Shown one piece after another: positions 391 through 21,189 of a stretch of DNA of 21,391 nt (position 1 is the first letter of the stretch; each line of letters opens with the position of its first letter). This DNA comes from an uncultured Caldithrix sp. (lineage in GTDB: Bacteria > Calditrichota > Calditrichia > Calditrichales > Calditrichaceae): assembly GCA_964468415.1 (NCBI GenBank), contig CAYXUS010000246.1, positions 1-21,391 on the forward strand, written 5' to 3'. The notes below the pieces were generated by a model. It worked only from the letters and a program-made list of their open reading frames with translations. It had not been told where the DNA came from and did not search any database. The position numbers were made by a program, and so were the translations under genes.

Positions 391-474
391 GCGAAAGTGG
401 CGGAACTGGCAGACGCGCTAGGTTCAGGGTCTAGTGGGCGCAAGCCCGTGGGGGTTCAAATCCCCCCTTTCGCA
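391..474 (+). tRNA. tRNA-Leu (anticodon CAG), type II tRNA with a long variable arm
   Basis: Hand-folded cloverleaf. Acceptor stem GCGAAAG/CTTTCGC, anticodon stem CTAGG/TCTAG with loop TTCAGGG (anticodon CAG), long variable arm TGGGCGCAAGCCCG, T-arm GGGGG-TTCAAAT-CCCCC. Near-identical in architecture to E. coli tRNA-Leu(CAG). CCA is not encoded. Confidence 0.9.
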
Positions 475-2485: not shown

Positions 2486-3355
2486 ATGGAACTGAAGGAA
2501 GCGCTTTTAGAACTGATTCGCCGGGCGGCAACGGATCTTCCTCCCGATGTGGAAGCGGCGCTGCAAAAAGCGTACGAAAAGGAAGACGACAATACCCCGG
2601 CCAAAAACGTGTTTGCAACCATTTTGCAGAATGTGAAAATGGCACGCGAACAAAGTACCCCCATTTGTCAGGATACCGGCTCGCTGGTTTTTTACATCGA
2701 CTTTCCCGTGGGGCATGCCGAAAAAACCTACCGCGAAGCCATTGAATGGGCGGCTGTCGAAGCGACCAATCGACAATATTTGCGCCCCAATGCCGTTGAT
2801 CCGGTCACCAATAAAAACAGCGGAAACAACCTCGGGGTTAACGCCCCTTACATTCACTTTCACCAGTGGGATAAAGACGAGGTGCGCATCCGCTTGCTTT
2901 TAAAGGGCGGCGGCAGCGAAAACGTAGGCTCGCAGTACAAATTGCCCCACGCGCCCATCAAAGCGGGACGCGATCTTGAAGGCGTGCGCAAAGTTATCAT
3001 TGATGCCGTGACCAACGCGCAAGGTTTGGGCTGCGCACCCGGAACCATTGGCGTGGGCATTGGCGGCGGGCGTGATACCTCGTACGCACTTTCCAAGGAG
3101 CAGTTTTTCAGAAAAATGGGACAGCGCAGCGAAAACAAAGAACTGGCCGAGCTGGAACTGCGCCTGTTAGACGAACTGAATCGTCTGAACATCGGTCCCA
3201 TGGGCTTTGGCGGAAAAACCACGGTACTGGATGTGTTTATTGCCGCGCAGGCCCGCCACCCGGCGACTTTTTACGTTTCCGTTTCGTACAACTGCTGGGC
3301 CTACCGCAGAAAAATGTTGACCATTAAAAACGGCGAGGTGGAATATGACGATTAA
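2486..3355 (+). CDS. Class I (Fe-S) fumarate hydratase / L(+)-tartrate dehydratase alpha subunit (FumA/TtdA N-terminal catalytic domain type)
   Basis: 289 aa with the conserved Fe-S hydro-lyase alpha-subunit pattern (PICQDTGS..., GGGSEN, GIGGG). AGGAGA SD 8 nt upstream. The stop overlaps the next ORF's start. Confidence 0.85.
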   Translation: MELKEALLELIRRAATDLPPDVEAALQKAYEKEDDNTPAKNVFATILQNVKMAREQSTPICQDTGSLVFYIDFPVGHAEKTYREAIEWAAVEATNRQYLRPNAVDPVTNKNSGNNLGVNAPYIHFHQWDKDEVRIRLLLKGGGSENVGSQYKLPHAPIKAGRDLEGVRKVIIDAVTNAQGLGCAPGTIGVGIGGGRDTSYALSKEQFFRKMGQRSENKELAELELRLLDELNRLNIGPMGFGGKTTVLDVFIAAQARHPATFYVSVSYNCWAYRRKMLTIKNGEVEYDD

Positions 3356-3932
3356 ATTGAAAACTCCGATTTCGGAAGAAGAAATCCGAAAATTGCACAT
3401 CGGTGACACGGTGCTTCTTTCCGGTGTCATCGTCACCGCCCGCGATCAGGCGCATAAATTGATGATCGAAGAACGTCCGGATTTCATCCGCAAATACTTG
3501 AAAGAATCGGTGATTTACCACTGCGGTCCGGTGGTACGCCAAAATCCGGACGGCACCTGGAAATTTGTGGCCGCCGGTCCCACCACTTCCGCTCGCGAGG
3601 AACCGTATCAGGCCGAGGTGATCAAGGAATATCAGGTGCGCGGCGTCATCGGCAAAGGTGGCATGGGGCCCAAAACGCTGGAGGGCCTGCAAAAGTACGG
3701 CGCCGTGTATTTCCACGCCGTGGGCGGGGCCGGAACGCTAATCGCCAATGCCGTCAAGCGCGTCATCGACGTTTTTAAGCTGGAAGAATTCGGTACACCC
3801 GAGGCTTTTTGGGTAATCGAAGTGGAAGATTTTCCCTTGGTGGTCACCATGGATTCGCACGGCAACAGCATGCACAAAGAAATTCTGGAACAATCGAAAG
3901 CCAAGGCCGAAGAACTGATGGGCCTGAAATAA
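3345..3932 (+). CDS. Class I fumarate hydratase / tartrate dehydratase beta subunit (FumA C-terminal domain type)
   Basis: 195 aa. GKGGMGPKT...AVGGAG is typical of the beta subunit. Its start ATG lies inside the ATGACGATTAA overlap with the alpha stop (translational coupling). GAGGTGG SD. Confidence 0.85.
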   Translation: MTIKLKTPISEEEIRKLHIGDTVLLSGVIVTARDQAHKLMIEERPDFIRKYLKESVIYHCGPVVRQNPDGTWKFVAAGPTTSAREEPYQAEVIKEYQVRGVIGKGGMGPKTLEGLQKYGAVYFHAVGGAGTLIANAVKRVIDVFKLEEFGTPEAFWVIEVEDFPLVVTMDSHGNSMHKEILEQSKAKAEELMGLK

Positions 3933-4040: not shown

Positions 4041-5435
4041 ATGCGCAAGGAAAAAGACGCTCTGGGCGAAGTTTTCGTACCGGATGACAAATATTACGGG
4101 GCACAAACCCAACGGGCACTAAAAAATTTTATGGTGGGCAGTGAACGGTTTCCGCCGGAATTCATTCGTGCCCATGCCATCGTAAAAAAGGCGGCCGCAC
4201 GGGTAAATGCCGCTCTGGGCGAGCTAAACGTACCCATCGCCCGCGCCATCGAACAAGCCGCGGATGAGGTGATAACCGGTAAGCTAAACGATCACTTTCC
4301 GCTGGTCATCTGGCAGAGCGGCAGTGGCACGCAATTTAACATGAATGTCAATGAGGTAATCGCCAACCGGGCCAGTGAAATTTTGGGCGGACGTCCGGGT
4401 GCCAAGTCGCCCGTGCATCCCAACGATCACGTAAACATGGCACAATCCACAAACGACACGTTTTCCACCTCCATGCACATCGCTTCTGTTCTGGCGTTAA
4501 AGGAAAAACTGCACGGTGCGCTGGTCGCCTTCGAAAAAGCCTTGCAGAGCAAAGCGGAACAGTTCAAAGACATCATTAAAATCGGCCGGACCCATTTGCA
4601 GGACGCCACACCGCTTACGTTGGGGCAGGAATTTTCCGGTTATGCCGCGCAAATACATGCGGCACACGAAGTCATTCGCGGTGTACTACCCCTTTTGAGC
4701 GAATTGCCGATCGGCGGCACGGCAGTAGGTACGGGGTTAAACACCAAAACCGGTTTCGATGAAATGATGGTGGCGGAAATCACACGTCTTACCGGCCACA
4801 CGTTTAAAGTGGCGCGTAACAAATTTGCCGGTTTGGCCGCACACGATGCCCTGGTGGCGCTCTCCGGCGCTTTAAAAACGCTGGCTGCGGCGCTGATGAA
4901 AATTGCCAACGACATCCGCTGGTCGGCCAGTGGCCCGCGCAGTGGCCTGGGCGAAATTATTTTACCGGCCAACGAACCGGGTAGCTCCGTTATGCCCGGA
5001 AAAATAAATCCCACGCAAAGCGAAATGCTCACGCAGGTGGTTTGTCAGGTGTACGGCAACGATACTACGATTTCCATGGCCGGTTCACAGGGTAACTTTG
5101 AGCTGAACGTGTTTAAGCCGGTTATTATTTTTAATGTGCTGCAATCCGTTACGTTGTTGGCCGAGGCCATGAATTCGTTTCGCGAAAAGGCGCTTGAGGG
5201 GCTTGTGCCGCATGTTAGAAACATGGAACACCATCTAAAAAATTCGCTGATGCTGGTAACCGCATTGAACAAACACATCGGTTACGACAAAGCGGCGGAA
5301 ATTGCTTTAAAAGCCTGGCAGGAGGACAAAACGCTCAAGGAAGCGGCTGTGGAATCGGGCTATGTGAGCGAGGATCAGTTTGACCAATGGGTAAAACCGG
5401 GAAAAATGATCGGGCCGGAAGAGAGGACAGAATAG
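4041..5435 (+). CDS. fumC: Class II fumarate hydratase (fumarase C)
   Basis: 464 aa. It carries the fumarase/aspartase-superfamily signature GSSVMPGKINPTQSEML (FumC-type, not the AspA-type PAKVNP) and a C-terminal half closely matching the E. coli FumC pattern. AAGGAG SD. Confidence 0.9.
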   Translation: MRKEKDALGEVFVPDDKYYGAQTQRALKNFMVGSERFPPEFIRAHAIVKKAAARVNAALGELNVPIARAIEQAADEVITGKLNDHFPLVIWQSGSGTQFNMNVNEVIANRASEILGGRPGAKSPVHPNDHVNMAQSTNDTFSTSMHIASVLALKEKLHGALVAFEKALQSKAEQFKDIIKIGRTHLQDATPLTLGQEFSGYAAQIHAAHEVIRGVLPLLSELPIGGTAVGTGLNTKTGFDEMMVAEITRLTGHTFKVARNKFAGLAAHDALVALSGALKTLAAALMKIANDIRWSASGPRSGLGEIILPANEPGSSVMPGKINPTQSEMLTQVVCQVYGNDTTISMAGSQGNFELNVFKPVIIFNVLQSVTLLAEAMNSFREKALEGLVPHVRNMEHHLKNSLMLVTALNKHIGYDKAAEIALKAWQEDKTLKEAAVESGYVSEDQFDQWVKPGKMIGPEERTE

Positions 5436-5856
5436 AAAAAGGGCCAACGAGCAATTTTGCCATTGACCCTTTTGGGAGGAGGAGCTATGCGTTTCATCAT
5501 TTAATATCGACTTCTACCACACAAACCTTAAGTTCTTTTCTTAACTGGTTAAAATTTTTACGTTTTTTTTCGGGCAAAAGTTCGCGATTTTGGAATATTT
5601 AACGGAACTGCTCCGTTTCCGTTCCCTAAAAAAGAAAATTTTCGGCGTTTTTCTGTCCATCTGCTAAAAAGTCGGTCGGTTACCAACCTTTGCAGGCAGA
5701 GGCCCAAATTGCAATGAGACGAAACCTATCCGAAAAATTAAAGTTAAATGATAGAATTTCGATTATGGAAAGCAAATGTGTGGTGTGACCATTGTCATGG
5801 CACATTTCGAGTGAAATGTCGATCTTGGCACTGAAATTAAAACAAGGAGAAAAGCC

Positions 5857-5919
5857 ATGAAGATTAAAATCAAGGCAAAATACAAAATTAAAAGCATGAA
5901 AGCCCATTTTTCCCGATAA
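5857..5919 (+). CDS. Candidate SD-led small ORF (20 aa, MKIKIKAKYKIKSMKAHFSR), Lys/Ile-rich
   Basis: AAGGAGA 6 nt upstream of the ATG. It sits in a 570-bp intergenic region that ends in a strong plus-strand terminator. Nothing homologous is recognised. Confidence 0.2.
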   Translation: MKIKIKAKYKIKSMKAHFSR

Positions 5920-5977
5920 ACATCCTATTAGGAGAGGTTCACCCATCTTCCATATACCCACTCCTCCCAAAAGAATC

Positions 5978-6012
5978 AAGGCATCCTAATTTTAATGGAT
6001 GCCTTTTTTAAT
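5978..6012. terminator. Bidirectional intrinsic terminator (GGCATCC-loop-GGATGCC) after the giant minus-strand gene and a short plus-strand transcript
   Basis: 7-bp perfect stem flanked by TTTTTTAATTT on the plus strand and a T-rich run on the minus strand. The giant ORF's stop lies immediately adjacent at 6013-6015. Confidence 0.55.
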
Positions 6013-9000
6013 TTACCCGTTTTCGCCGGTAAGACGGGCAATCTGCAAAATGTAAAAGCGCAATTGCTCCTGTTCTGCGGATGAAAGGGGCTGTTGCTCA
6101 ATTTTAACAATACGCTCCACATCACGCAAAGCACGCATTACATTTACCGGTAACTCCCCCGCTGCCTGTGCCTGATGATTCAAATAGTGCATGGCGGCCA
6201 GTAGAAATTGTTTTAGATTGTCGTCCGTAACATTGCGCAGCCCCGAATGAAGCTGGCTCAAAACCCGTTGATCCGTGCTTTGAAACGGAATCCCGTTTGC
6301 CGCCTGATTTTTTAAAAGCACCTCAATAGCCTGACTTAGTTGAACAAAACTTTCTACCTGCCCGGCGACTTTTTCTCCGATCAACTGCCAGATTTCCTTT
6401 CGCCAGTGGCGCACCTTTACGGGAATACGCAACAAATGCTCGGTTTGCCGAAGCCAGGCTTCGTCCGGAGTTAATGTAGTATCCTTTCTGCCAAGTAAAA
6501 CATCGGGCTCGGTATTAAAGAGATTCTCTTGTAAAAGAACCGCCAAATCGGGACGCAAGGTCGGCAAAAGTTCGCTGCGGAACGCCCCGTTTTCAAAGAA
6601 GTCACCGACGGGCAACCCGTGTCTCCTGACTAATTCGACCTGGAAAAGCGGGATGAATTCGTGCATTAATTTCGTGTCTTCGTGCAGGGCAAAAAGGGCG
6701 CTATTGCCGGCCGGGAACAGCGGTTCCAGATTTCGAAAATGCTCCAGATCCACATCCTGATACAAACGGAGCGTGTTCAAAATTTCGTACACGGGCAAAT
6801 AGGGCAAAATACGTTCTTGCAGTGCAAATTGTTGCGGCATCACACTTTGCTGGTCGTTGGCAAATTCTTTTAAGGCCCGGAACAGTCCGGTCGTTAACTG
6901 ATTGATCCCCAAAATCATTGTCTGGGCCCGGTTGTGCCCAATAGCGCGCAATAACGTACCGTGTTTGGAAAGCGGGAGCACTCGGGTGAGACGCTCTACT
7001 ACCTTCTGCCCCACATCCGCCTGCGAAACATTGCCCGGGCGAATTGTCGGACGATCTCTAAACGAGGGGGTCATGCGCGAAACAAAATAGGAGACAATGT
7101 GGATGCCCACCACATCTTCATCTCGCCCGTACACAATTTGGCGAAAGTTTTCGGAGGCAATCTGCAGAAATTTGTCGTACATGGGGTCCGACCAACCCAG
7201 TGTCAGACGCCGTAATTCCTTTTCCCCTTTTTCGTGATATTGCAGGCGTGTGGAAATGAGCGGTTCACCGGCATGGAGCAACTCCTGATCGTGGTACTGC
7301 TGCTGAAGTTTTACATGGTACAGAGTGTTGGCTCGCTCGCTTGCCGGCAACATGCGCAGTTTTTCCGAAATCGTACTTTGAAAGGTTCGCAGGTCGCCAC
7401 TGCTAAACACTCCACGTAAAGGGGTAATCGCAAATTCCGCGCTTTTGGCGGCTGGCGGAAGTAACAATTGGTTTAGCTGCTGCTTGTTTCTGTGGTTTAA
7501 CAGGAACGCAGGGGTGCTGCCTATTGCGTCGTAAAACCCGCCCTGGCGTTGCATGGGTTCTCCGCTTCCCAATTTCAACCGCACCTTCCCCAACAACCCC
7601 TTTTGTGCCAGCCATTTGACCACTTTAAACTTGGTTTCTTTGTACAATTGGGCGGCAAGGGCCTGCCCTACCTGCTGGCTTAAATCGGAACCAGCTACAA
7701 ATATTTCGCAGAGCATCTGGCTAAAACGTTCCTCCGGCGACTGGGATGTGGCCCGGTGACTTTGCACGTAGTTCCACAATTCGTTCAGATAGGTCTCAAT
7801 GCGCTTGACGACGTCATAATCTTCAAAAAGAGGGATGACCCAAATGTCGGGGAGAGCTGTCCTGGGCGAACGACGCAATACGGCTTCTTTGCGAGCACGT
7901 AATTTTTGCTCCAGGCGGATCAACGCTTCGGTTTTGCTGGTCATGCTGACCTGCAGGGCCAGAATGAGGCCGGCGTTACCGACATCTCCGCCCAGTTCGT
8001 TAATCTCGGTCAGGTTGAATACTGTGGTGTCAATGGCAAAGGGATCGACCGAGGTAATCATGTTTTGATGAATGCGCGGTGTTAACACAAATCGTTTGAG
8101 TAAATCACGGTAAAATCCTACCCGAAAAAGTAATTCGGGATTATCGGAATGCTTGAGGATGGCCGGAATGGAAGCGTGCAATGCCTTGCGTAATTTTTTG
8201 TTCAAAAGGAAATATTCTTCCAGCCCTTTTCGCCGCTGATTGCGGAGCTGACGCATTTTTCGTTCGAGGCGGTCGTTGTGCGTCCAAAGGGCCGTTAACG
8301 GATCTTGAGCGATGCCTAATTTCATTCCCAGGCTGCGCCAAAAACCGGGCCGTGTTTGCGCCGGAAGTAAACTACGATAGCGTTTTTCCAGTTGGTTGGT
8401 AAGTGCGGTAATTTCGTTTAGTACTTTCCAGAATTTTTCCCGACGTCGCGGGAGTTCCTGAAGGGCCGTGCGTAGTTCCGGGTCTAAGTCCAAATCGTTC
8501 TCCAGAGAGAGAAGCAATGTCAAAATGTTTGCCAAACGGCTTACGTTTTCGATAACAACAGCCCCAACCAAACGGTGGCCCTGACCGGAAGGCCGTGTGC
8601 TGCCGTCCCAGTCTCCCCAAAAGGAGAGAAAGGCGGGTACTTGTTCTCCTTGTAATTCGGCCAGAATTTCTGCCTCGACAAAGGCGTTTAGGTCCTGAAG
8701 AAGCTCGTCAGCTTCTTGCACGGAATTAATGGGCACCGTCTCGCCAAAAAACTCGGCAACTAATTCTCGAGCCAGCTTTTCCAGTACCCCGGGCGATGGC
8801 CGATGCCCCCGGAGAATGGTTTGCATGAGGTTGGCCGCCTGAATATCCACGGAAAGCGCATACATTTGTGTGGGATGAACCGTGCGATCCAAAATGCGTT
8901 TGCGGAAACGCTGCTGCCGCGAGGCCAAATTGTCTTTGTAAAATTCGCGTTGCAACAACTCTTGCAAATAGGCATTGCGCTGTTTCTGCTCCATGAATCG

Positions 9001-11646
9001 CAATGCCTGCCAAATGGCTAATTTGTCGTTAAACTGACGCATAAAACCGGCAAGTCGGTTGCGTAGATGCTCTTCGACAAATGCGGTACGCTGGTCGGGA
9101 GTAGCAAAAGGCTTGCGCGTGCGATCGAAGTGCTGGCAGGCCAGGTGTTGAACGGTTTCAACCGTTTTTTCCCAGACGGAGAGTTGTTGGTTTGCGTAAG
9201 TCATCCAGCGGCCGGAAGACAGCGGCGGCATGGTCTTCTTTTGGACGGCCGACGCTTCCTGAGCGGTTAATCGGTTTAAACCGATTAAAACCCGCCGCAT
9301 CTGGTAATAAAGCTGCTCGTCACTCACACTACCACCTAAGGTCAGCCGAAATGCATTACGCGCAATTTGGTAGCCTTGGGCGGTACGGGCAAAGGTCGTA
9401 AGAGGAACCAGCCCGATGCCCTGATTGGCCAGATTCGATGACAGCGTTTCCTGTGAAATACCGGCCGGCAAACGCTTAATAAACAGCAACGGGTACATGC
9501 TGCCCGCCGGCGTCTGCAGCGTTCCCAGAAAAGGATTGCGCTCCTCAGGCAATTCCTGTTCTGCCTTTTTCAACCAGCTCATTCTCCGGGCAAACAATCG
9601 ATTACGAAAATCCCAGTAGTTTTCTACTTTCTCGCGTCCATTCCGATAAAATAAATACGCAATAAGCAACGGCAACCGATGATCCCGTACGAATTTTAAT
9701 CTCTCAAGGAAAAGCGTGCGCACATCGGCTTCAGGAATTTCTACCACCGTCAGTCGCGCCCCGGCAAAACTATCGGTCTTGGAAAGCGAATGAATGGTAA
9801 TAAGCTTCTCCGCATCTTTTCCGGCTATGTATCCGGTACGTACCAGTTGAGTGACAAGTTGCTTAAGCGTTTTTATCCGTCGGGAAGACTGCCAGGGGCC
9901 AACATTTTGATACGATAAATCATCAATCACTCGAACCCCTTGCCGTAAGGCCCAGTGCAAAATGGAAAGCAATTCTTCTTCCGGCAAAATGCGCCCCGTT
10001 GCATTATGCGGGTTGTTGAAAACAATGGCACCATTTTCGCGCCATGAGCTATCTCGCAATAAGAGAGCCTCCATTTGCTCAATAAAATGTTTTGCCGAGA
10101 ATGTGTGGAGTGGGCTCAAAGGGAGAGTTTCCACGTGAGGGAAACAATGTTCATACGTCCAACTCAAATCCAGCGTAGCAACTTTTTTAATAGGGCCGAA
10201 ATGGCCTAATAAGCCCAATGCCGTTCGTGCCGAACCGCTAACCACTGCACACGCCTCTCGTTCGTACTCAGGATGGAGGGCAAGAAAAACCTCTAAAAAA
10301 TTTTCCTTTAGCTCCCTGATGAAGGTTTTATCATCCAAACGGTCAAAAAATCGATCAATTAATTCAAATGATGAAAAAGAAGAAAACGAATCGTCCGCAA
10401 CCCTTTCACCCTCAAAAGAACGGCTTCCATGCTCTCCTTTTTGCCGAGCAAAATTCTGCCATTTTTCGGCAATACCCTGGACCTTTTGCGCATTTCTTGC
10501 CATTTGTCGAGTAAAAGAAGCCGCGATTTCTTCGGCCCGGCGAACGGTTAAAAGTGCGCTGCTTCCCGTAAAACGATCTGTTTGGCGCTGAAGCTCACTC
10601 TCGATGTTCTCATCAATTCCGTCTTTGTTAACCTGGAATGCACGTTTTTTCATCTCCTGACTCAGGGCAAAATGCAGCAGCTCGGCTTCCGGTGCAGATG
10701 GTGTGCCTTTCAGCTCGAAATGCACCGTTTCCAAGTGTTGAATGTAATCGGCCCGGCCCATGACCAAAACAATGGAATGGCCTTTTAGCCCGGGATTAAT
10801 CGCCTCCGGAGTAAGAAAGCGAAGCACACGATCCGCCAAAAGAGTCTCACGGGCCAACGAAAAATGGTTGGGCGCATTATTTACTTCCACAACAAATAAC
10901 GGATAAGCTAAAACCAATTCCCGCAAATGCCGCCGAAATTTTTCAGACGGTACTGCACCAAGAAAAACAAAATGCGGCTGATGCACCTCTGTTTTCTGGA
11001 ATTCCGCTTGCAAAGCGGCAAGCGCATGTTCCTCGTCATTGGGCAACACATGCTTCTCGGTTTGCTCCAATTCAAACAAAAAATTTGGCAAGGAAACATT
11101 AAAAAGCCAAACAACCGCAGGCCGGACACGTAACGCGCGATTTAACATGAACAAAAATACACGAATATTCTCTACAAGTCCGCCGCTGCCCAGCATCAAC
11201 TCTTTGTGCCCGGTCTGTTGGCCAATATCGTATTTTAACGGTTCAAGCTGTTCGTTCTCCAGCCAGTGGCGGATACGCTCTACCAAGGGCCCCGGGGAAC
11301 GCCGATTGTAGCCACCACGCGGCATGTAAGGATTGCACAAAGGTATTGCATCAAATACAAATTGTGCATTACGCCGTTGGATATCATTTGCAGAGACCGT
11401 GCCCAAAAAGCGTTGAAACGCTTCTTTGTCCTGAACAGTCTCCGGATCCGTTTGGAAAACCAATTGACGAAAAAGCGCCGTCAATCGGTTATCCTGTATC
11501 GGATGGCCAATATGAAAATTCACCCGCTCCTTATCGGGAACGGGTGCCATAGCCGTGGCCTCACTTATCTCCGAAACTTTAGCCGCTTTAAGCGGCTTTA
11601 AAGCAAAAAAATCTTCTTGCATTTTCTCTGCAAAGTTAATCCACAA
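6013..11646 (-). CDS. Giant (1877 aa) multidomain protein: tandem fold-type-I aminotransferase-like domains (about res 40-400 and 425-800) fused to a divergent PEP carboxylase-like domain (about res 800-1877)
   Basis: Uninterrupted 5.6-kb ORF. Domain 2 has the class-I aminotransferase motifs in the canonical order: Gly-rich VVSGSARTAL, NNPHNATG, DDLSY, SLSKTDSFAGARL (PLP Lys codon 9778-9780) and FRLTLGG. The C-terminal part has the PEPC motifs in native order and spacing: RTVHPTQ (H at 8875-8877), VIPLFEDYD, EIFVAGSDLSQQVG, RLKLGSGEPMQRQGG, LRAIGHNRAQ, and a C-terminal RLTGENG. The start is ambiguous: TTG at 11646 or ATG at 11622. Confidence 0.8.
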   Translation of the reverse strand: MWINFAEKMQEDFFALKPLKAAKVSEISEATAMAPVPDKERVNFHIGHPIQDNRLTALFRQLVFQTDPETVQDKEAFQRFLGTVSANDIQRRNAQFVFDAIPLCNPYMPRGGYNRRSPGPLVERIRHWLENEQLEPLKYDIGQQTGHKELMLGSGGLVENIRVFLFMLNRALRVRPAVVWLFNVSLPNFLFELEQTEKHVLPNDEEHALAALQAEFQKTEVHQPHFVFLGAVPSEKFRRHLRELVLAYPLFVVEVNNAPNHFSLARETLLADRVLRFLTPEAINPGLKGHSIVLVMGRADYIQHLETVHFELKGTPSAPEAELLHFALSQEMKKRAFQVNKDGIDENIESELQRQTDRFTGSSALLTVRRAEEIAASFTRQMARNAQKVQGIAEKWQNFARQKGEHGSRSFEGERVADDSFSSFSSFELIDRFFDRLDDKTFIRELKENFLEVFLALHPEYEREACAVVSGSARTALGLLGHFGPIKKVATLDLSWTYEHCFPHVETLPLSPLHTFSAKHFIEQMEALLLRDSSWRENGAIVFNNPHNATGRILPEEELLSILHWALRQGVRVIDDLSYQNVGPWQSSRRIKTLKQLVTQLVRTGYIAGKDAEKLITIHSLSKTDSFAGARLTVVEIPEADVRTLFLERLKFVRDHRLPLLIAYLFYRNGREKVENYWDFRNRLFARRMSWLKKAEQELPEERNPFLGTLQTPAGSMYPLLFIKRLPAGISQETLSSNLANQGIGLVPLTTFARTAQGYQIARNAFRLTLGGSVSDEQLYYQMRRVLIGLNRLTAQEASAVQKKTMPPLSSGRWMTYANQQLSVWEKTVETVQHLACQHFDRTRKPFATPDQRTAFVEEHLRNRLAGFMRQFNDKLAIWQALRFMEQKQRNAYLQELLQREFYKDNLASRQQRFRKRILDRTVHPTQMYALSVDIQAANLMQTILRGHRPSPGVLEKLARELVAEFFGETVPINSVQEADELLQDLNAFVEAEILAELQGEQVPAFLSFWGDWDGSTRPSGQGHRLVGAVVIENVSRLANILTLLLSLENDLDLDPELRTALQELPRRREKFWKVLNEITALTNQLEKRYRSLLPAQTRPGFWRSLGMKLGIAQDPLTALWTHNDRLERKMRQLRNQRRKGLEEYFLLNKKLRKALHASIPAILKHSDNPELLFRVGFYRDLLKRFVLTPRIHQNMITSVDPFAIDTTVFNLTEINELGGDVGNAGLILALQVSMTSKTEALIRLEQKLRARKEAVLRRSPRTALPDIWVIPLFEDYDVVKRIETYLNELWNYVQSHRATSQSPEERFSQMLCEIFVAGSDLSQQVGQALAAQLYKETKFKVVKWLAQKGLLGKVRLKLGSGEPMQRQGGFYDAIGSTPAFLLNHRNKQQLNQLLLPPAAKSAEFAITPLRGVFSSGDLRTFQSTISEKLRMLPASERANTLYHVKLQQQYHDQELLHAGEPLISTRLQYHEKGEKELRRLTLGWSDPMYDKFLQIASENFRQIVYGRDEDVVGIHIVSYFVSRMTPSFRDRPTIRPGNVSQADVGQKVVERLTRVLPLSKHGTLLRAIGHNRAQTMILGINQLTTGLFRALKEFANDQQSVMPQQFALQERILPYLPVYEILNTLRLYQDVDLEHFRNLEPLFPAGNSALFALHEDTKLMHEFIPLFQVELVRRHGLPVGDFFENGAFRSELLPTLRPDLAVLLQENLFNTEPDVLLGRKDTTLTPDEAWLRQTEHLLRIPVKVRHWRKEIWQLIGEKVAGQVESFVQLSQAIEVLLKNQAANGIPFQSTDQRVLSQLHSGLRNVTDDNLKQFLLAAMHYLNHQAQAAGELPVNVMRALRDVERIVKIEQQPLSSAEQEQLRFYILQIARLTGENG

Positions 11647-11689
11647 ACCAAGGCAGGAAAAACCGTTTAAACGCTTCCCCTCCCCCTAC

Positions 11690-12655
11690 CTAATCTTTCT
11701 TAAACACCTTCCGTATAACCGCCTCTAATGTCTCAACCAGTTGCCCGCTCTTTTGCTGATCCAACCCCGCAAGCGAAACGATCGTCCGGGCATTTTTTAA
11801 TTGTTGACTCGCCTCTGCCAGCCGTGCCAGCTGCGGTGAAAGGAGCAGCAACTCGGGATGCTGTTCAAAGGCCTGCAACTCTTTTTGTTCCATCTCCCAC
11901 TGCATTTTGCGCCGTTCAAGTTCCTGCTCTACCCGGTAACGGGCCAATTCTGCCTCTTTCTCCTGCGCTTGCTGTTGCAACTCAAACTCCTTTAGTTGCA
12001 ACTGATGCTCCATCGCTTTGATCTTTTCGTCTGTCTCCAGTTTTACCCGCGTTGCTTCTAATCGCGCCGCCTGATCCACTTTCTCGGTTTTTTCCCGGAT
12101 GCGTGCCGCCTCTTGCTGACGCATCGCTTCCGCAATTTCCGCATCCAGTGGCTCTACCCCCTGCACGCTTAAGCTGACAAACTGTAAACCGAACTTGGGG
12201 CATTCTTTTTCAAGAACCTTTTGCAAATGCAGGCGTAACGCCTCGCCGCTCAGCTCGTCAATCTCATACCGTTCACAGAATTCCCGTGTTGCCGCTTGAA
12301 TCAACAACGCCGTTTCTTCCGCAGCTTTTTGAACCATGTTCTTATTCCATCCCCCACTGCGCACCAGTGTCTCCAGATGATCTTCCGAAGCGGCAATGGT
12401 AAAAACGAGCTTAATCTTTACCGGCAATTTCCCTTTGGCCTCGCTCTCAAATTCCTGCGTCAAAGAATAAATCGTAGCCGGCACGGCCAGGCTAAAATGC
12501 CGGGGATAGTACCGCCCCTTACGCCTTCGAATCTTTCCTCCGCTATCGCTCAAAATAATCTCGTCCGGCCTTCTTTGACGGAACTCAAACAAAAATATCA
12601 AAATGACAACGACCAAAACCACCAGCAAAATAATGACGCCCATGGCAAACTCCAT
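11690..12655 (-). CDS. SPFH/band-7 (flotillin/YqiK-like) membrane protein with a C-terminal Glu/Gln/Ala-rich coiled coil
   Basis: N-terminal TM helix (VIILLVVLVVVILIFLF), SPFH-like core, then a long EA/EQ-rich coiled coil. Co-oriented with the giant gene, 43 bp upstream of it. Confidence 0.7.
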   Translation of the reverse strand: MEFAMGVIILLVVLVVVILIFLFEFRQRRPDEIILSDSGGKIRRRKGRYYPRHFSLAVPATIYSLTQEFESEAKGKLPVKIKLVFTIAASEDHLETLVRSGGWNKNMVQKAAEETALLIQAATREFCERYEIDELSGEALRLHLQKVLEKECPKFGLQFVSLSVQGVEPLDAEIAEAMRQQEAARIREKTEKVDQAARLEATRVKLETDEKIKAMEHQLQLKEFELQQQAQEKEAELARYRVEQELERRKMQWEMEQKELQAFEQHPELLLLSPQLARLAEASQQLKNARTIVSLAGLDQQKSGQLVETLEAVIRKVFKKD

Positions 12656-12828
12656 CTATGTTTGGTTGAATTTTAACTTTTGTTCTGCACATCCTTTGCG
12701 TACAGAGTACCCCCCCATTAATCCGCACGCTTTCCCTGTGGAATATTTATATTTTATTATTAAAATGCAATTTTATTTATTTTGCTTCTCCAAAAGTCCC
12801 ATTGTAAATTGAAAAAAAGGAGAGAAAA

Positions 12829-13317
12829 TTGTACACCCGAATATTTCTTCTTATCACTGCCTTTTTTATTTCGGCTTGTATTTTTGAGCAAAAATTAGAC
12901 TCAGATGATGTGATAGTCTCATTTACTCTTAGCGATACAACCGGAAGAGAAGCCTCTGTTTTCAAGTCCGGAGAAAATTTCATCGTCTCTTTTACGGTAC
13001 GAAACCAATCCGATGTTGCCTTAACTTACGACTACAGTAACCCGCTCATCCACTACACAATTTTTCGGGGAGATTCTCAGGTCTGCAGCTCCATAGATGA
13101 AATGAACTACACTGCCGTCGTCCTGCATGGCAAGCTCCCGTCTGCTTCTACCCTAAAAGACCAATGGGTTGCGCCCAATACGCCCGGCCGGATTGCCGCA
13201 AAAAATAGAGTGACCTTACAGCCCGGAACCTACCAAATTAAAGTGTACCATTCCCCATTATTCAACGAATACCGCCTGCCCCAAACCCCGGAACGTACTT
13301 TCAAAATTACCCAATAA
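12829..13317 (+). CDS. Small secreted lipoprotein (lipobox ISAC), possibly a BsuPI-like beta-sandwich protein; TTG start
   Basis: Signal peptide plus lipobox L-I-T-A-F-F-I-S-A-C. AAGGAGAG SD before the TTG. Locally AT-richer than its neighbours. The fold assignment is tentative. Confidence 0.5.
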   Translation: MYTRIFLLITAFFISACIFEQKLDSDDVIVSFTLSDTTGREASVFKSGENFIVSFTVRNQSDVALTYDYSNPLIHYTIFRGDSQVCSSIDEMNYTAVVLHGKLPSASTLKDQWVAPNTPGRIAAKNRVTLQPGTYQIKVYHSPLFNEYRLPQTPERTFKITQ

Positions 13318-18995: not shown

Positions 18996-19979
18996 ATGAA
19001 ACGCAGAAAATTTTTGAAAAGCAGCGCCCTAATAAGTGTTGGAACCTGGCTTCCTGCTTCTTTCTTTTCGCTGCCGATGGTTTCCGTTGCTTCCGGGAAG
19101 AAATCCCGTGTGGTCATTGCCCGTGATCCTTCTGTTTTTAACAACAATCGCTTGAATAGCAGAAAAGTTACCGATCTGCTGGACAATGCCATTCAAGCCT
19201 ACTTTAATGTGGATCATCCTTTACACGGCTGGCAGAAAATCGTCCATCCCGGCGAAGTCATTGGCGTTAAAGTGAACTGCCTTTCGGGGCGAGGTTCCAC
19301 CCACAAAGAACTGGTCGATGCGGTCGTCGAACGCTTGCGCCAAGCCGGTATTAAAGCACGTAACATCATCATTTGGGACCGGCTGAACAAAGACCTGGAA
19401 GAAGCAGGGTACCGGATTCGCTACAAAGGCAAAGGCCCACTGGTCTTCGGCAACGACGCCGTGGGATTCGATCCTGAGTTGCAAGTATTCGGCCAGGCTG
19501 GTAGTCTGGTAACACGCATCATGACCCACCTGTGTGACGGGATCATTAATCTGGCGCTCCTTCGGGATCACAGTATTGCCGGCGTGTCCATTTCTCTCAA
19601 GAACCTGTTCGGAGCCATCCACAATCCCAACAAATACCATCTCAATGTCGGCGATCCTTACATTCCCGATGTGAACGCCTTCCCGGTTATTCGTCGGAAG
19701 GTGCGCTTTACCATTGTCGATGCGCTCGAAGCCCAATATCACGGAGGGCCGGCTTACATGCCCCAATGGCGCTGGCCGTATGCCGGTTTGCTCGTCGGAC
19801 AAGACCGGGTTGCAATTGACTACACAGGATGGCACATCATCGAAGAAAAACGAAGGGCAATGGGATTACCTCCACTAAAAGACGAAAACCGAGAGCCCCG
19901 ATACATTTTCACAGCCAGTGACTCGGATCATTTGTTGGGTAACAGCAATCCCAGGCTTATCGAAAAAATCATGGTGTAA
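18996..19979 (+). CDS. DUF362 domain protein with twin-arginine (Tat) signal peptide
   Basis: N-terminus KRRKFLK + hydrophobic region + VSVA. The core matches DUF362 patterns (VIGVKVN..., LKNLFG..., IVDALEAQYHGGP). Confidence 0.7.
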   Translation: MKRRKFLKSSALISVGTWLPASFFSLPMVSVASGKKSRVVIARDPSVFNNNRLNSRKVTDLLDNAIQAYFNVDHPLHGWQKIVHPGEVIGVKVNCLSGRGSTHKELVDAVVERLRQAGIKARNIIIWDRLNKDLEEAGYRIRYKGKGPLVFGNDAVGFDPELQVFGQAGSLVTRIMTHLCDGIINLALLRDHSIAGVSISLKNLFGAIHNPNKYHLNVGDPYIPDVNAFPVIRRKVRFTIVDALEAQYHGGPAYMPQWRWPYAGLLVGQDRVAIDYTGWHIIEEKRRAMGLPPLKDENREPRYIFTASDSDHLLGNSNPRLIEKIMV

Positions 19980-19997
19980 TTCGGCAAAGGTAAAAAC

Positions 19998-21189
19998 GAT
20001 GAAAGAACAAACCATTTTAATCGACCAATGGCCGGGACAAGAGCGAAAGAAATCATTCGGTGTAAGCCGACGAACCTTTCTAAAACTTGCCTCTTCCGCC
20101 GGGATTCTCCTGGGCCTTCCGGGCATAAATTGGTCGGAGGGGCGCGCTTTGCTGGCTGCGACCGGAAATGATGAGCGGTTTGTACGCGAGGCCCGTTATT
20201 GGGAAAAGAAGGCCCACAAACAAGTTCACTGCCAGCTGTGTCCCCGCGGATGCGTGGTGGACGACCACGAGCGGGGCTACTGCGGAGTTCGGGAGAACCG
20301 CGGGGGAACTTATTACACATTGGTTTATTCCCGGGCAGCCACCTACCATATTGATCCCATTGAAAAGAAGCCGTTGTTTCACTTTCTCCCCGGGAGCATG
20401 GCTTTTTCCATCGCCACAGCCGGTTGCAATCTGAATTGTAAATTTTGCCAGAATTGGCAAATTTCGCAGGTCACGCCGGAGCAGGTCGATAGCTACTACC
20501 TGCCGCCGCAAAAACTGGCGACGCTGGCCCGTGAATACAAAACAAAATCGATTGCCTACACTTACAACGAGCCCACGATTTTCTACGAATACATGTACGA
20601 CACAGCCGTGGCCGCCCAAGAACAAAGCGTAAAAAGCGTAGTCATTACAGCCGCTTACATCGAACACGATCCCATTGCCGAACTGTGCCAGGTAGTGGAT
20701 GCCATAAAGGTAGATTTAAAAGCGTTTTCGGAAAAATATTACAAAGACATTGTCCACGGCGAATTAAAACCTGTGTTGCAAGCCCTGGAAACAATTCGTA
20801 AGCAGGACACGTGGTTGGAAATTGTGTATCTGGTTGTGCCTACGCTAAACGACAGTGAAGCGGAAATCAAAAAACTTTCGCGCTGGATTAAACGCTATCT
20901 CGGCCCGGATGTACCCATCCATTTTACCCGTTTTTTCCCGCAATATTTATTAAAAAACCTGCCCCCTACTCCCGTAGCAACGCTCGACCGCTGTAAAGCC
21001 ATCGCCGATGCCGAGGGCTTGCATTATGTGTATGTGGGCAACGTACCGGGCCATCCCGCGGAAAATACGTACTGCCCCCATTGCGGAAAGCCTTTGGTTG
21101 AGCGCATTGGCTTTACGATAAAAAGCATGCACATTACCAATGGGAAATGCCCTTATTGCGGGACAAAAATTCCGGGTATTTGGAAGTAA
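19998..21189 (+). CDS. AmmeMemoRadiSam-type radical SAM enzyme (PFL-activase-like) with a Tat-like N-terminal signal
   Basis: HCQLCPRGC...GYCGVREN N-terminal Cys box, then AGCNLNCKFCQNW (Cx3Cx2C radical SAM cluster) and PIEKKPLFHF. The N-terminus has SRRTFLK plus a hydrophobic stretch. I prefer the start at 19998 (AAAGG 8 nt upstream) over the ORF-track 19918, which would overlap the DUF362 gene by 62 nt. Confidence 0.85.

Follow-up and report, generated by a model that had tools for sequence, protein, structure and literature searches.

A contig of 21,391 nucleotides (nt) from an uncultured Caldithrix sp. (CAYXUS010000246.1 in assembly GCA_964468415.1; its whole length is called the window here) carries a giant gene for a protein of 1869 amino acids (aa) in which two domains of aminotransferase fold are followed by a long domain whose predicted structure places it in the phosphoenolpyruvate carboxylase (PEPC) superfamily. 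A gene for an SPFH/stomatin-like membrane protein lies directly upstream. The locus can be read as a two-gene module, in which a single-pass stomatin-like SPFH scaffold would be coupled to a soluble tri-domain enzyme. A functional model of this module combines PEPC-like carboxylation with transamination to aspartate, a pseudo-dimer of the N-terminal and middle domains, and tethering by the SPFH protein; taken as a whole, its chances fall somewhat short of even. The folds, the residue conservation, the fixed architecture and the gene pairing are established, and from them the model proposes carboxylase activity, a transaminase substrate, the pseudo-dimer, channelling and membrane tethering. The three folds are known, and their combination, the SPFH pairing and the long PEPC-like clade appear to be new. 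The parts of the module are as follows.

6013..11622 (-): giant fusion gene, 1869 aa from the ATG at 11622; alternative TTG start at 11646; stop codon at 6013-6015
10627..11622 (-): pseudo-aminotransferase domain (N domain), aa 9-340; fold-type-I large domain with a 7-stranded sheet
10327..10626 (-): linker, variable and mostly helical, aa 341-440, between the two aminotransferase-fold domains
9256..10326 (-): class-I aminotransferase domain (middle domain), aa 441-797, Pfam PF00155; predicted to be catalytically intact
6016..9249 (-): divergent 'long' PEPC-like domain (C-domain), aa 800-1877, 1078 residues; modelled as a TIM barrel with large helical elaborations
11690..12655 (-): SPFH/stomatin-like membrane protein, 321 aa, directly upstream of the giant gene; N-terminal transmembrane anchor, SPFH domain and coiled coil

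The giant gene was first noticed in a first-pass annotation as a single 1877-aa open reading frame (ORF) at 6013-11646. The ORF is real: it is an uninterrupted run of 1877 codons on the reverse strand that opens with TTG, and more than 480 protein clusters (44-99% identity; 1835-1950 aa) match its product over the full length. The true start is probably the ATG at 11622, because the nearest homologues and the gene call P0393 on the same 21,391-nt contig are both 1869 aa long. Residue numbers throughout refer to the 1877-aa ORF, in which this preferred start is M9. The 120 listed relatives of the giant protein span 1837-1904 aa. In a collection holding one genome per species, 333 places were confirmed by tblastn to carry a relative of the gene, and all 333 are recovered by a search pattern made of the block FWGDWDGSxRPSGQGH.

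Could the long ORF be an artefact, in which a mis-assembly or a frameshift has joined separate aminotransferase and PEPC genes? The sole oddity on the side of this explanation is the upstream in-frame TTG, which adds 8 codons. Against it, an unbroken ORF of this architecture and length is seen again and again in independently assembled genomes of several phyla, among them the complete genome of the cultured Caldithrix abyssi DSM 13497. Further evidence comes from a search of 1.84 billion representatives with a profile of the C-domain. It returned 240 hits, the complete members of which were all 1700-1950 aa long with the C-domain starting at residue ~700-850, and in no complete member were the domains split. 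The shorter hits lay on short contigs or were marked partial. For practical purposes the recurrence of full-length homologues refutes the artefact, whose probability is negligible.

The family is spread over several phyla. The relatives closest to the window are found in Calditrichota, and other carriers are Ignavibacteria/Melioribacteraceae and further metagenome-assembled genomes (MAGs) labelled Bacteroidota, as well as Acidobacteriota (Bryobacterales/Solibacteraceae), Chloroflexota (Anaerolineae), Aminicenantes and Marinimicrobia. Public records call the giant protein merely an aminotransferase, and this includes the C. abyssi DSM 13497 orthologue (WP_006927506.1; UniRef H1XUL0).

A side observation concerns the beginning of the coding sequence. 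The strongest terminator-like hairpin of the region (11521-11546, reverse strand; 10 pairs, 7 of them G-C, then a T-run) lies inside the giant gene, ~75 nt past the ATG and over the conserved codons for PVPxEERVNFHIG. Promoter and terminator scans showed no enrichment over shuffled sequences; since terminator-like sites are not enriched, the hairpin is probably there by chance.

Of the three domains, the middle one is the easiest to recognize. The first-pass annotation had read the class-I aminotransferase motifs in it, with the lysine box for pyridoxal 5'-phosphate (PLP), and profile searches agree: the isolated domain matches Pfam Aminotran_1_2 (PF00155) with an E-value of 3.7e-11 and 43.3 bits, and the match within the full-length protein scores 37.9 bits, both against a cut-off of 19.7. 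Conservation was scored in alignments of 25 and of 75 homologues. The residues expected of the active site are as follows.

10003-10005 (-): N548 in NNPHNATG, cofactor-binding Asn
9910-9921 (-): D576 and Y579 in IDDLSY, the D-x-x-Y motif
9778-9780 (-): K623 in SLSK, the PLP Schiff-base lysine
9346-9348 (-): R767 in FRLTLGG, carboxylate-binding Arg

All five residues are invariant in the 25 homologues, and K623, N548, D576 and R767 are at least 90% conserved in the alignment of 75. The stretches NNPHNATG, IDDLSY and SLSKTDSFAGAR pair with the canonical motifs in alignments to solved aminotransferases. A profile of the family, run against PDB sequences, found class-I fold PLP enzymes only, which were mostly aminotransferases plus two C-S lyases; the best match was Bna3 (3b46, E 8.6e-9). 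No NCBIfam equivalog was reached for the middle domain, the best being DapC_actino with 33 bits against a cut-off of 355. The middle domain is thus predicted to be a competent class-I PLP aminotransferase that uses K623, and its substrate cannot be read from the sequence. An invariant and family-specific arginine, R474 (in VVSGSxRTAL), occupies what we take to be the loop in which Thermus-type aspartate aminotransferases (AspATs) have Lys109, a residue that presumably binds the side-chain carboxylate.

The N domain is a different case. Its aminotransferase fold is visible in structure and not in sequence: Pfam gave no match, and hhalign of the N domain against the middle domain found no significant similarity, whether run locally or globally, so that the assignment rests on the structural model. 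The AlphaFold2 (AF2) model of the domain has a mean predicted local distance difference test score (pLDDT) of 85 and a predicted template modelling score (pTM) of 0.76. A Foldseek search of the PDB with this model gave 590 matches at E<=1e-3, and all 50 listed were class-I aminotransferases. YbdL (1u08) was the best match (E 1.2e-9), and DapC, kynurenine aminotransferases and Thermus AspAT were also found. The cofactor residues are missing. There is no conserved Lys at aa 255-300 in the alignment, and the strand expected to end in SxSK reads VLRFL-TP (aa 274-280). Likewise, 'FLxLG' stands in place of NPxNPTG and 'FFVExN' in place of D-x-x-Y, where residues were mapped by the order of the seven strands in the model and not by a printed structural alignment. 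Judged from this model, the N domain is an aminotransferase fold that has become a pseudo-enzyme. The tandem aminotransferase-like domains of the first-pass annotation therefore hold for both copies as folds and fail for the N-terminal copy as an enzyme; since this copy lacks the PLP lysine and other cofactor residues, the protein would have one active transaminase site instead of two.

What could an inactive copy contribute? Class-I aminotransferases are obligately dimeric, and residues of one subunit take part in the active site of the other. The middle domain lacks the segment that carries the N-terminal arm and the Tyr70-type residue: its Pfam match begins at profile position 88, and the counterpart of the Bna3 segment 'YsptrG' is only variable linker sequence. 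The N domain keeps 'VNFHIGxP' and 'PYMPRGG', in which Y107 is invariant. Because class-I dimers borrow elements from the partner, and because the N domain keeps those that the middle domain lacks, we infer that the two domains pair within each chain as a pseudo-dimer that has a single active site. The linker between them has a consensus that is nearly all 'x', low to medium pLDDT, and long helices. Compared with known class-I aminotransferases (3b46, YbdL 1u08, DapC 2o0r, Thermus/Pyrococcus AspAT), the middle domain is alike in the PLP lysine, the Asn, the Asp-x-x-Tyr motif and the C-terminal Arg, and the N domain shares the fold. Those enzymes, however, are ~400-aa homodimers, whereas the giant protein has two copies in one chain, the first without cofactor residues and the second without the N-terminal arm.

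The assignment of the C-domain also depends on structure. Its AF2 model (pLDDT 85.8, pTM 0.88) shows the TIM barrel and the characteristic helical elaboration of the PEPC superfamily. In a Foldseek search of the PDB, all 36 matches at E<=1e-3 were PEPCs, and the next match had an E-value of 0.23. The best match was the E. coli enzyme (1jqn; E 8e-11, probability 1.0), followed by PEPCs of maize, Arabidopsis and the archaeal type. All eight predicted barrel strands bear the motif of the corresponding position in the E. coli and Anaerolineae PEPCs. Sequence comparison is far less informative. Searches of Pfam, NCBIfam and PDB sequences at permissive thresholds gave no match for the C-domain, and hhalign against E. 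coli PEPC alone gave nothing. A profile built from the C-domain and a related standalone protein (P0378, described below), when searched with hmmsearch against two PEPCs, aligned only weakly and locally over the ISM...PLFE part. In the other direction, a two-sequence PEPC profile searched against a set of 5.8 billion proteins found only Enterobacterales PEPCs of at least 82% identity.

An intermediate family bridges this gap. The sole outlier of the search of representatives with the C-domain profile was P0378, a standalone protein of 1038 aa (E 4e-22). It belongs to a family of five standalone proteins (P0378 and P0385-P0388; 976-1038 aa), here called A6. A6 and the C-domain align by hhalign over 716 columns with a probability of 99.8% and an E-value of 5.7e-30. 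On its other side, A6 reaches known PEPCs: three of the five members match Pfam PEPcase_2 (PF14010), with a best E-value of 6e-10, and two score at or above the 25-bit gathering score (P0378 has 32.8 bits). Against the pair of E. coli and Anaerolineae PEPCs, A6 aligns with ISM, PLFE, YSDS and GRGG in register (E 1.5e-4). A6 genes were located at three loci.

L082, 6892-10008: standalone PEPC-like gene
L083, 1851-4850: standalone PEPC-like gene
L084, 8001-10931: standalone PEPC-like gene

They lie near housekeeping and central-metabolism genes (GAPDH, transketolase, homoserine dehydrogenase), with no SPFH or aminotransferase gene as neighbour, and A6 itself may represent a type of PEPC that has yet to be described. 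Based on the structural models and this intermediate family, the C-domain is best placed as a strongly diverged member of the PEPC superfamily, nearer the archaeal type.

Motif equivalences between the C-domain and PEPC were drawn from positions that are identical in E. coli Ppc and in a canonical PEPC from an Anaerolineaceae MAG (locus L070), together with the barrel strands of the model.

8875-8877 (-): H924 in LDRTVHPTQ; E. coli LTAHPTE, H138
8575-8628 (-): FWGDWDG, aa 1009-1015 (in FWGDWDGSxRPSG); E. coli WMGGDRDG
8074-8076 (-): R1191 in LTPRIHQ, on a barrel strand; candidate for E. coli LDIRQ, R396
7939-7959 (-): QVSM, aa 1232-1235; E. coli ISM
7822-7824 (-): E1275 in PLFE; E. coli PLFE, E506
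7684-7686 (-): D1321 in AGSDLSQQ; E. coli GYSDSxKD, D543
7546-7548 (-): R1367 in KLGSGEPMQRQGG (with L1359 and S1361); E. coli FHGRGGSIGRGG (H579, R581, R587)
LRTFQS; E. coli LRVTEQG
R1532 in RDRPTIRP; candidate for E. coli GSRPxxRR, R699
R1567 in LRAIGH; candidate for E. coli LRAIPW, R713
C-terminus ...ENG; E. coli ...NTG

The residues of the giant protein named in this list are all invariant in the 75 homologues, apart from L1359, whose position holds L, M or F. The metal ligands of PEPC are a Glu and an Asp, and a conserved His serves to deprotonate carboxyphosphate (PMC10176493). The pairing of H924, E1275 and D1321 with H138, E506 and D543 is backed both by hhalign and by the barrel-strand positions. 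R396, R699 and R713 are the PEP-binding arginines of the E. coli enzyme. The equivalences R1191=R396, R1532=R699 and R1567=R713 are candidates drawn from the order of motifs and strands and not from a residue-level superposition, and a low-confidence hhalign alignment put R396 elsewhere than R1191. The terminal G1877 is likewise a candidate for the C-terminal Gly of PEPC. The glycine loop reads K(L/M/F)GSGEPMQRQGG, in which R1367 (R587) is invariant, as are the Glu, the Pro and the Gln. The block FWGDWDGSxRPSGQGH (about aa 1009-1024) is longer than the PEPC 'WMGGDRDGNP', and no other stretch of the family is as strongly conserved.

Most details of the first-pass annotation stand up to this comparison. 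The motifs that it had quoted are all present (NNPHNATG at aa 544-551, SLSKTDSFAGARL at aa 620-632 and TVHPTQ with H924), and their residues are invariant across the 75 aligned homologues. The spacings were also correct: PLFE (aa 1272-1275) follows H924 by 348 residues, and R1367 comes 47 after GSDLS (aa 1319-1323). A PEPC-type TG tail had been claimed as well, and here the annotation erred, as the protein ends in ...LTGENG, that is, in ENG with invariant N1876 and G1877 and not in the NTG of PEPC. Its PEPC-like assignment of the whole region is supported by structure and by the intermediate family and finds no support in the direct profiles (PF00311 and PF14010). The C-domain looks catalytically equipped from its residues; it fails both profile definitions of PEPC and has a modified glycine loop.

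Such a domain might have kept its fold and lost its chemistry. It could serve as a non-catalytic regulatory or scaffolding module, which senses PEP, aspartate or malate or mediates oligomerisation, in an SPFH-docked aminotransferase. The protein already contains one pseudo-enzyme among its three domains, the glycine-loop signature is partly lost, and fused non-catalytic, enzyme-like domains with an allosteric function are known in this part of metabolism, such as the PTA-like domain of malic enzymes (PMC8100219). The pattern of conservation argues otherwise: invariance falls on the catalytic and metal positions of PEPC across phyla at 44-47% overall identity, unlike in a decayed site. By contrast, the loss of cofactor residues is plain to see in the N domain, a true pseudo-enzyme. 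We consider a purely regulatory role improbable.

How does the C-domain compare with known PEPCs? With the archaeal-type enzyme (atPEPC/PepcA, PF14010; Clostridium perfringens 3odm), it shares the catalytic His, the Glu and Asp metal ligands and the loop Arg, and it is to the profile of this type that its sister family A6 matches above the gathering score. The archaeal-type enzyme has ~525 aa (55-60 kDa according to PMC8100219), and the C-domain with its 1078 aa is twice as long. The C-domain itself is unseen by PF14010, its loop is altered to GSGEPMQRQGG, and, by contrast with the archaeal type, it is always fused to two aminotransferase-fold domains and paired with an SPFH gene. With the bacterial/plant enzyme (PF00311; E. 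coli Ppc 1jqn/1fiy, maize, Arabidopsis), the C-domain shares the order of motifs and a similar size of the catalytic module (~900-1080 aa). It has no significant direct sequence or profile match to this type and differs in the replaced equivalents of H579 and R581 and in the ENG end instead of NTG.

Four PEPC types were counted in a 2020 review of the PEP-pyruvate-oxaloacetate node, none of which is fused to a transaminase (PMC8100219). For C. abyssi, the genome paper mentions at this node only PEP carboxykinase ('ATP PEP carboxylase') and malic enzyme (PMC5317091). Neither the combination of pseudo-aminotransferase, aminotransferase and long sequence-dark PEPC nor the 'long' PEPC-like clade was found in Pfam, NCBIfam or the searched literature, and the same holds for the pairing of the SPFH and giant genes; the first-pass annotation's view that the architecture was undescribed is consistent with this. 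A fifth PEPC class can be put forward as a tentative proposal, one that we think has a real but minority chance of being right: a long, sequence-dark PEPC that is fused to a pseudo-dimeric aminotransferase, would act as a single-chain synthase of aspartate from PEP, HCO3- and an amino donor, would be held at the membrane by an SPFH protein, and would have spread horizontally across Calditrichota, Ignavibacteria/Bacteroidota, Acidobacteriota, Chloroflexota and others.

The upstream SPFH gene is the most constant feature of the surroundings, and it had gone unmentioned in the first-pass annotation. Its product matches Pfam Band_7 (PF01145) with 25.3 bits against a cut-off of 23.6, and among solved structures PH stomatin (3bk6, E 0.005) is its nearest relative. 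A hydrophobic helix opens the protein, and an N-terminal anchor is present in 69 of the 72 orthologous partners; the giant protein has no transmembrane-like segment. Neighbourhoods were compared at 80 loci (L002-L081), five of which are cut by a contig end, leaving 75 with upstream sequence. In all 75, which represent at least four phyla, tblastn found an SPFH homologue directly upstream on the same strand. The gap between the two genes is 39-425 nt in 74 of them; the remaining one (L028) has a computed gap of 1400 nt that arises from a tblastn match to the giant gene beginning late. De novo clustering of all ORFs revealed no other conserved neighbour, nothing being common to more than 7 of the 80 loci.

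SPFH genes are usually found in an operon with a dedicated client, NfeD. The present pair resembles these stomatin-NfeD operons in that a single-pass SPFH protein with a coiled coil is co-encoded with one partner. It differs in the partner, a soluble 1869-aa protein that appears to be a metabolic enzyme and not an NfeD protease/OB-fold protein. It is in itself unusual for an SPFH scaffold to have a metabolic enzyme as its dedicated partner.

A pairing of this kind could also signify a membrane stress or defence module with co-opted enzyme domains. The SPFH pairing is strict while the other context varies by genome, as in mobile cassettes, the distribution across phyla is patchy, and the SPFH coiled coil has a weak PADLOC match to PbeC (E 0.0012). 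That match is marginal and confined to the coiled-coil region, and the giant protein has no PADLOC match. No domain of effector type, such as a nuclease or an ATPase, was seen, and the catalytic residues of PLP and PEPC type, which are intact, speak for a role in small-molecule metabolism. A stress or defence role seems very improbable.

How would the module work as a source of aspartate? The C-domain would bind PEP together with Mg2+ or Mn2+ and, with bicarbonate, carboxylate PEP to oxaloacetate. The middle domain would then aminate the labile oxaloacetate to aspartate through K623, with the N domain supplying the N-terminal-arm/Tyr70-type elements (VNFHIGxP and PYMPRGG) to its site. The strongly exergonic carboxylation would pull the transamination forward, so that the overall reaction would be irreversible and the labile keto acid would be spared; for PEPC the deltaG is ~ -32 kJ/mol (PMC10176493). 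The SPFH partner would presumably tether or organise the enzyme at the membrane. Channelling of PEP to aspartate had been proposed in the first-pass annotation, and as a hypothesis it is plausible.

Several findings weigh against this model. The first is the failure of direct sequence detection. The PF00311 search proposed in the first-pass annotation, which had named a negative profile result for this region among its grounds for refutation, gave no match even at E<=10, and neither did PF14010, for the whole protein, five sub-fragments and nine family members. Hhalign against the E. coli and Anaerolineae PEPC pair put the motifs in the right order without reaching significance (E 0.043, probability 1%). 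The second is the glycine loop. R581 and H579 are important residues of this loop in PEPC. In the FHGRGGxxGRGG signature, the C-domain has L/M/F at the H579 position and S at the R581 position, and bicarbonate activation could therefore be altered or lost. The third is the aminotransferase, whose nearest kin are kynurenine, methionine and DapC-type transaminases and C-S lyases, not AspAT specifically, so that the amino-acid product is not fixed. The fourth is regulation: aspartate inhibits known PEPCs, in the archaeal type competitively (PMC8100219), and a fused aspartate-forming domain could therefore be self-inhibitory. Finally, the Anaerolineaceae MAG of locus L070 also has a canonical PEPC (10541-13276, forward strand), located 3.9 kb downstream of the giant gene. 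It is near-complete, is 31% identical to E. coli Ppc and has all signature motifs. Because of its presence, the giant protein is not simply the only PEPC of that organism.

The same architecture may carry out a different chemistry. The barrel could bind PEP or a related 2-oxo or enol acid and a metal without bicarbonate-dependent carboxylation; the options include PEP hydrolysis or transfer, another C-C lyase or ligase, and carboxylation of a different enol-phosphate. The PLP domain could then be a transaminase, a C-S lyase or another PLP enzyme that acts on a compound other than oxaloacetate or aspartate. The replaced loop residues, with an invariant Glu, Pro and Gln in GSGEPMQRQGG, would fit such a change, as would the divergence that hides the family from both PEPC Pfam models, the coexisting canonical PEPC of L070, and an aminotransferase kinship that includes the PatB/cystalysin C-S lyases, GntC and DapC. 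In addition, ~550 residues beyond the archaeal PEPC core are conserved in the giant-protein family. What speaks for PEPC chemistry is the invariance of H924, the two metal ligands, R1367 and the GDWDG, LRAI and DRPxxRP motifs, and the standalone sister family A6, which reaches the PEPcase_2 gathering score and has genes of central metabolism as neighbours. On balance, a different chemistry is rated unlikely, though it is the alternative that we take most seriously beside carboxylation coupled to aspartate formation.

The rest of the window contains genes that have no constant association with the giant gene.

391-474 (+): tRNA gene (Rfam RF00005, 49.6 bits), overlapping the start of a spurious 101-aa ORF at 434-739
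2486-3932 (+): split class-I fumarase (alpha and beta subunits)
4041-5435 (+): class-II fumarase FumC (TIGR00979, 710 bits)
18996-19979 (+): 327-aa ORF without a known family, which precedes and overlaps the radical SAM gene
19918-21189 (+): AmmeMemoRadiSam-system radical SAM enzyme (TIGR04337, E 3e-117) with a possible twin-arginine signal

The fumarase genes adjoin the giant gene and are convergent with it, and they fit a C4-dicarboxylate theme. They were rejected as part of the system, being conserved beside the giant gene in at most 2 of the 80 loci. Between the convergent fumC and giant genes lies a 577-nt gap (5436-6012) that is AT-richer (GC 0.42); neither an Rfam match nor a convincing ORF was found in it, and its one terminator-like site, at 5674-5688 (-), is weak. 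The tRNA was the only Rfam match in the window.

PEPC is among the best-studied carbon-fixing and anaplerotic enzymes. The PEPC-like domain described here has been unseen by sequence libraries and is kept across several phyla. If it is active, metabolic reconstructions of abundant sediment, soil and hot-spring lineages would be missing a step that incorporates CO2 and forms aspartate. The protein would also be a natural case of covalent channelling of the unstable oxaloacetate and of an intramolecular aminotransferase 'dimer' made of a pseudo-enzyme and an enzyme, and, among metabolic enzymes, it would be the first seen to serve an SPFH scaffold as its dedicated client. The orthologue WP_006927506.1 of the cultured Caldithrix abyssi DSM 13497 makes these ideas directly testable.

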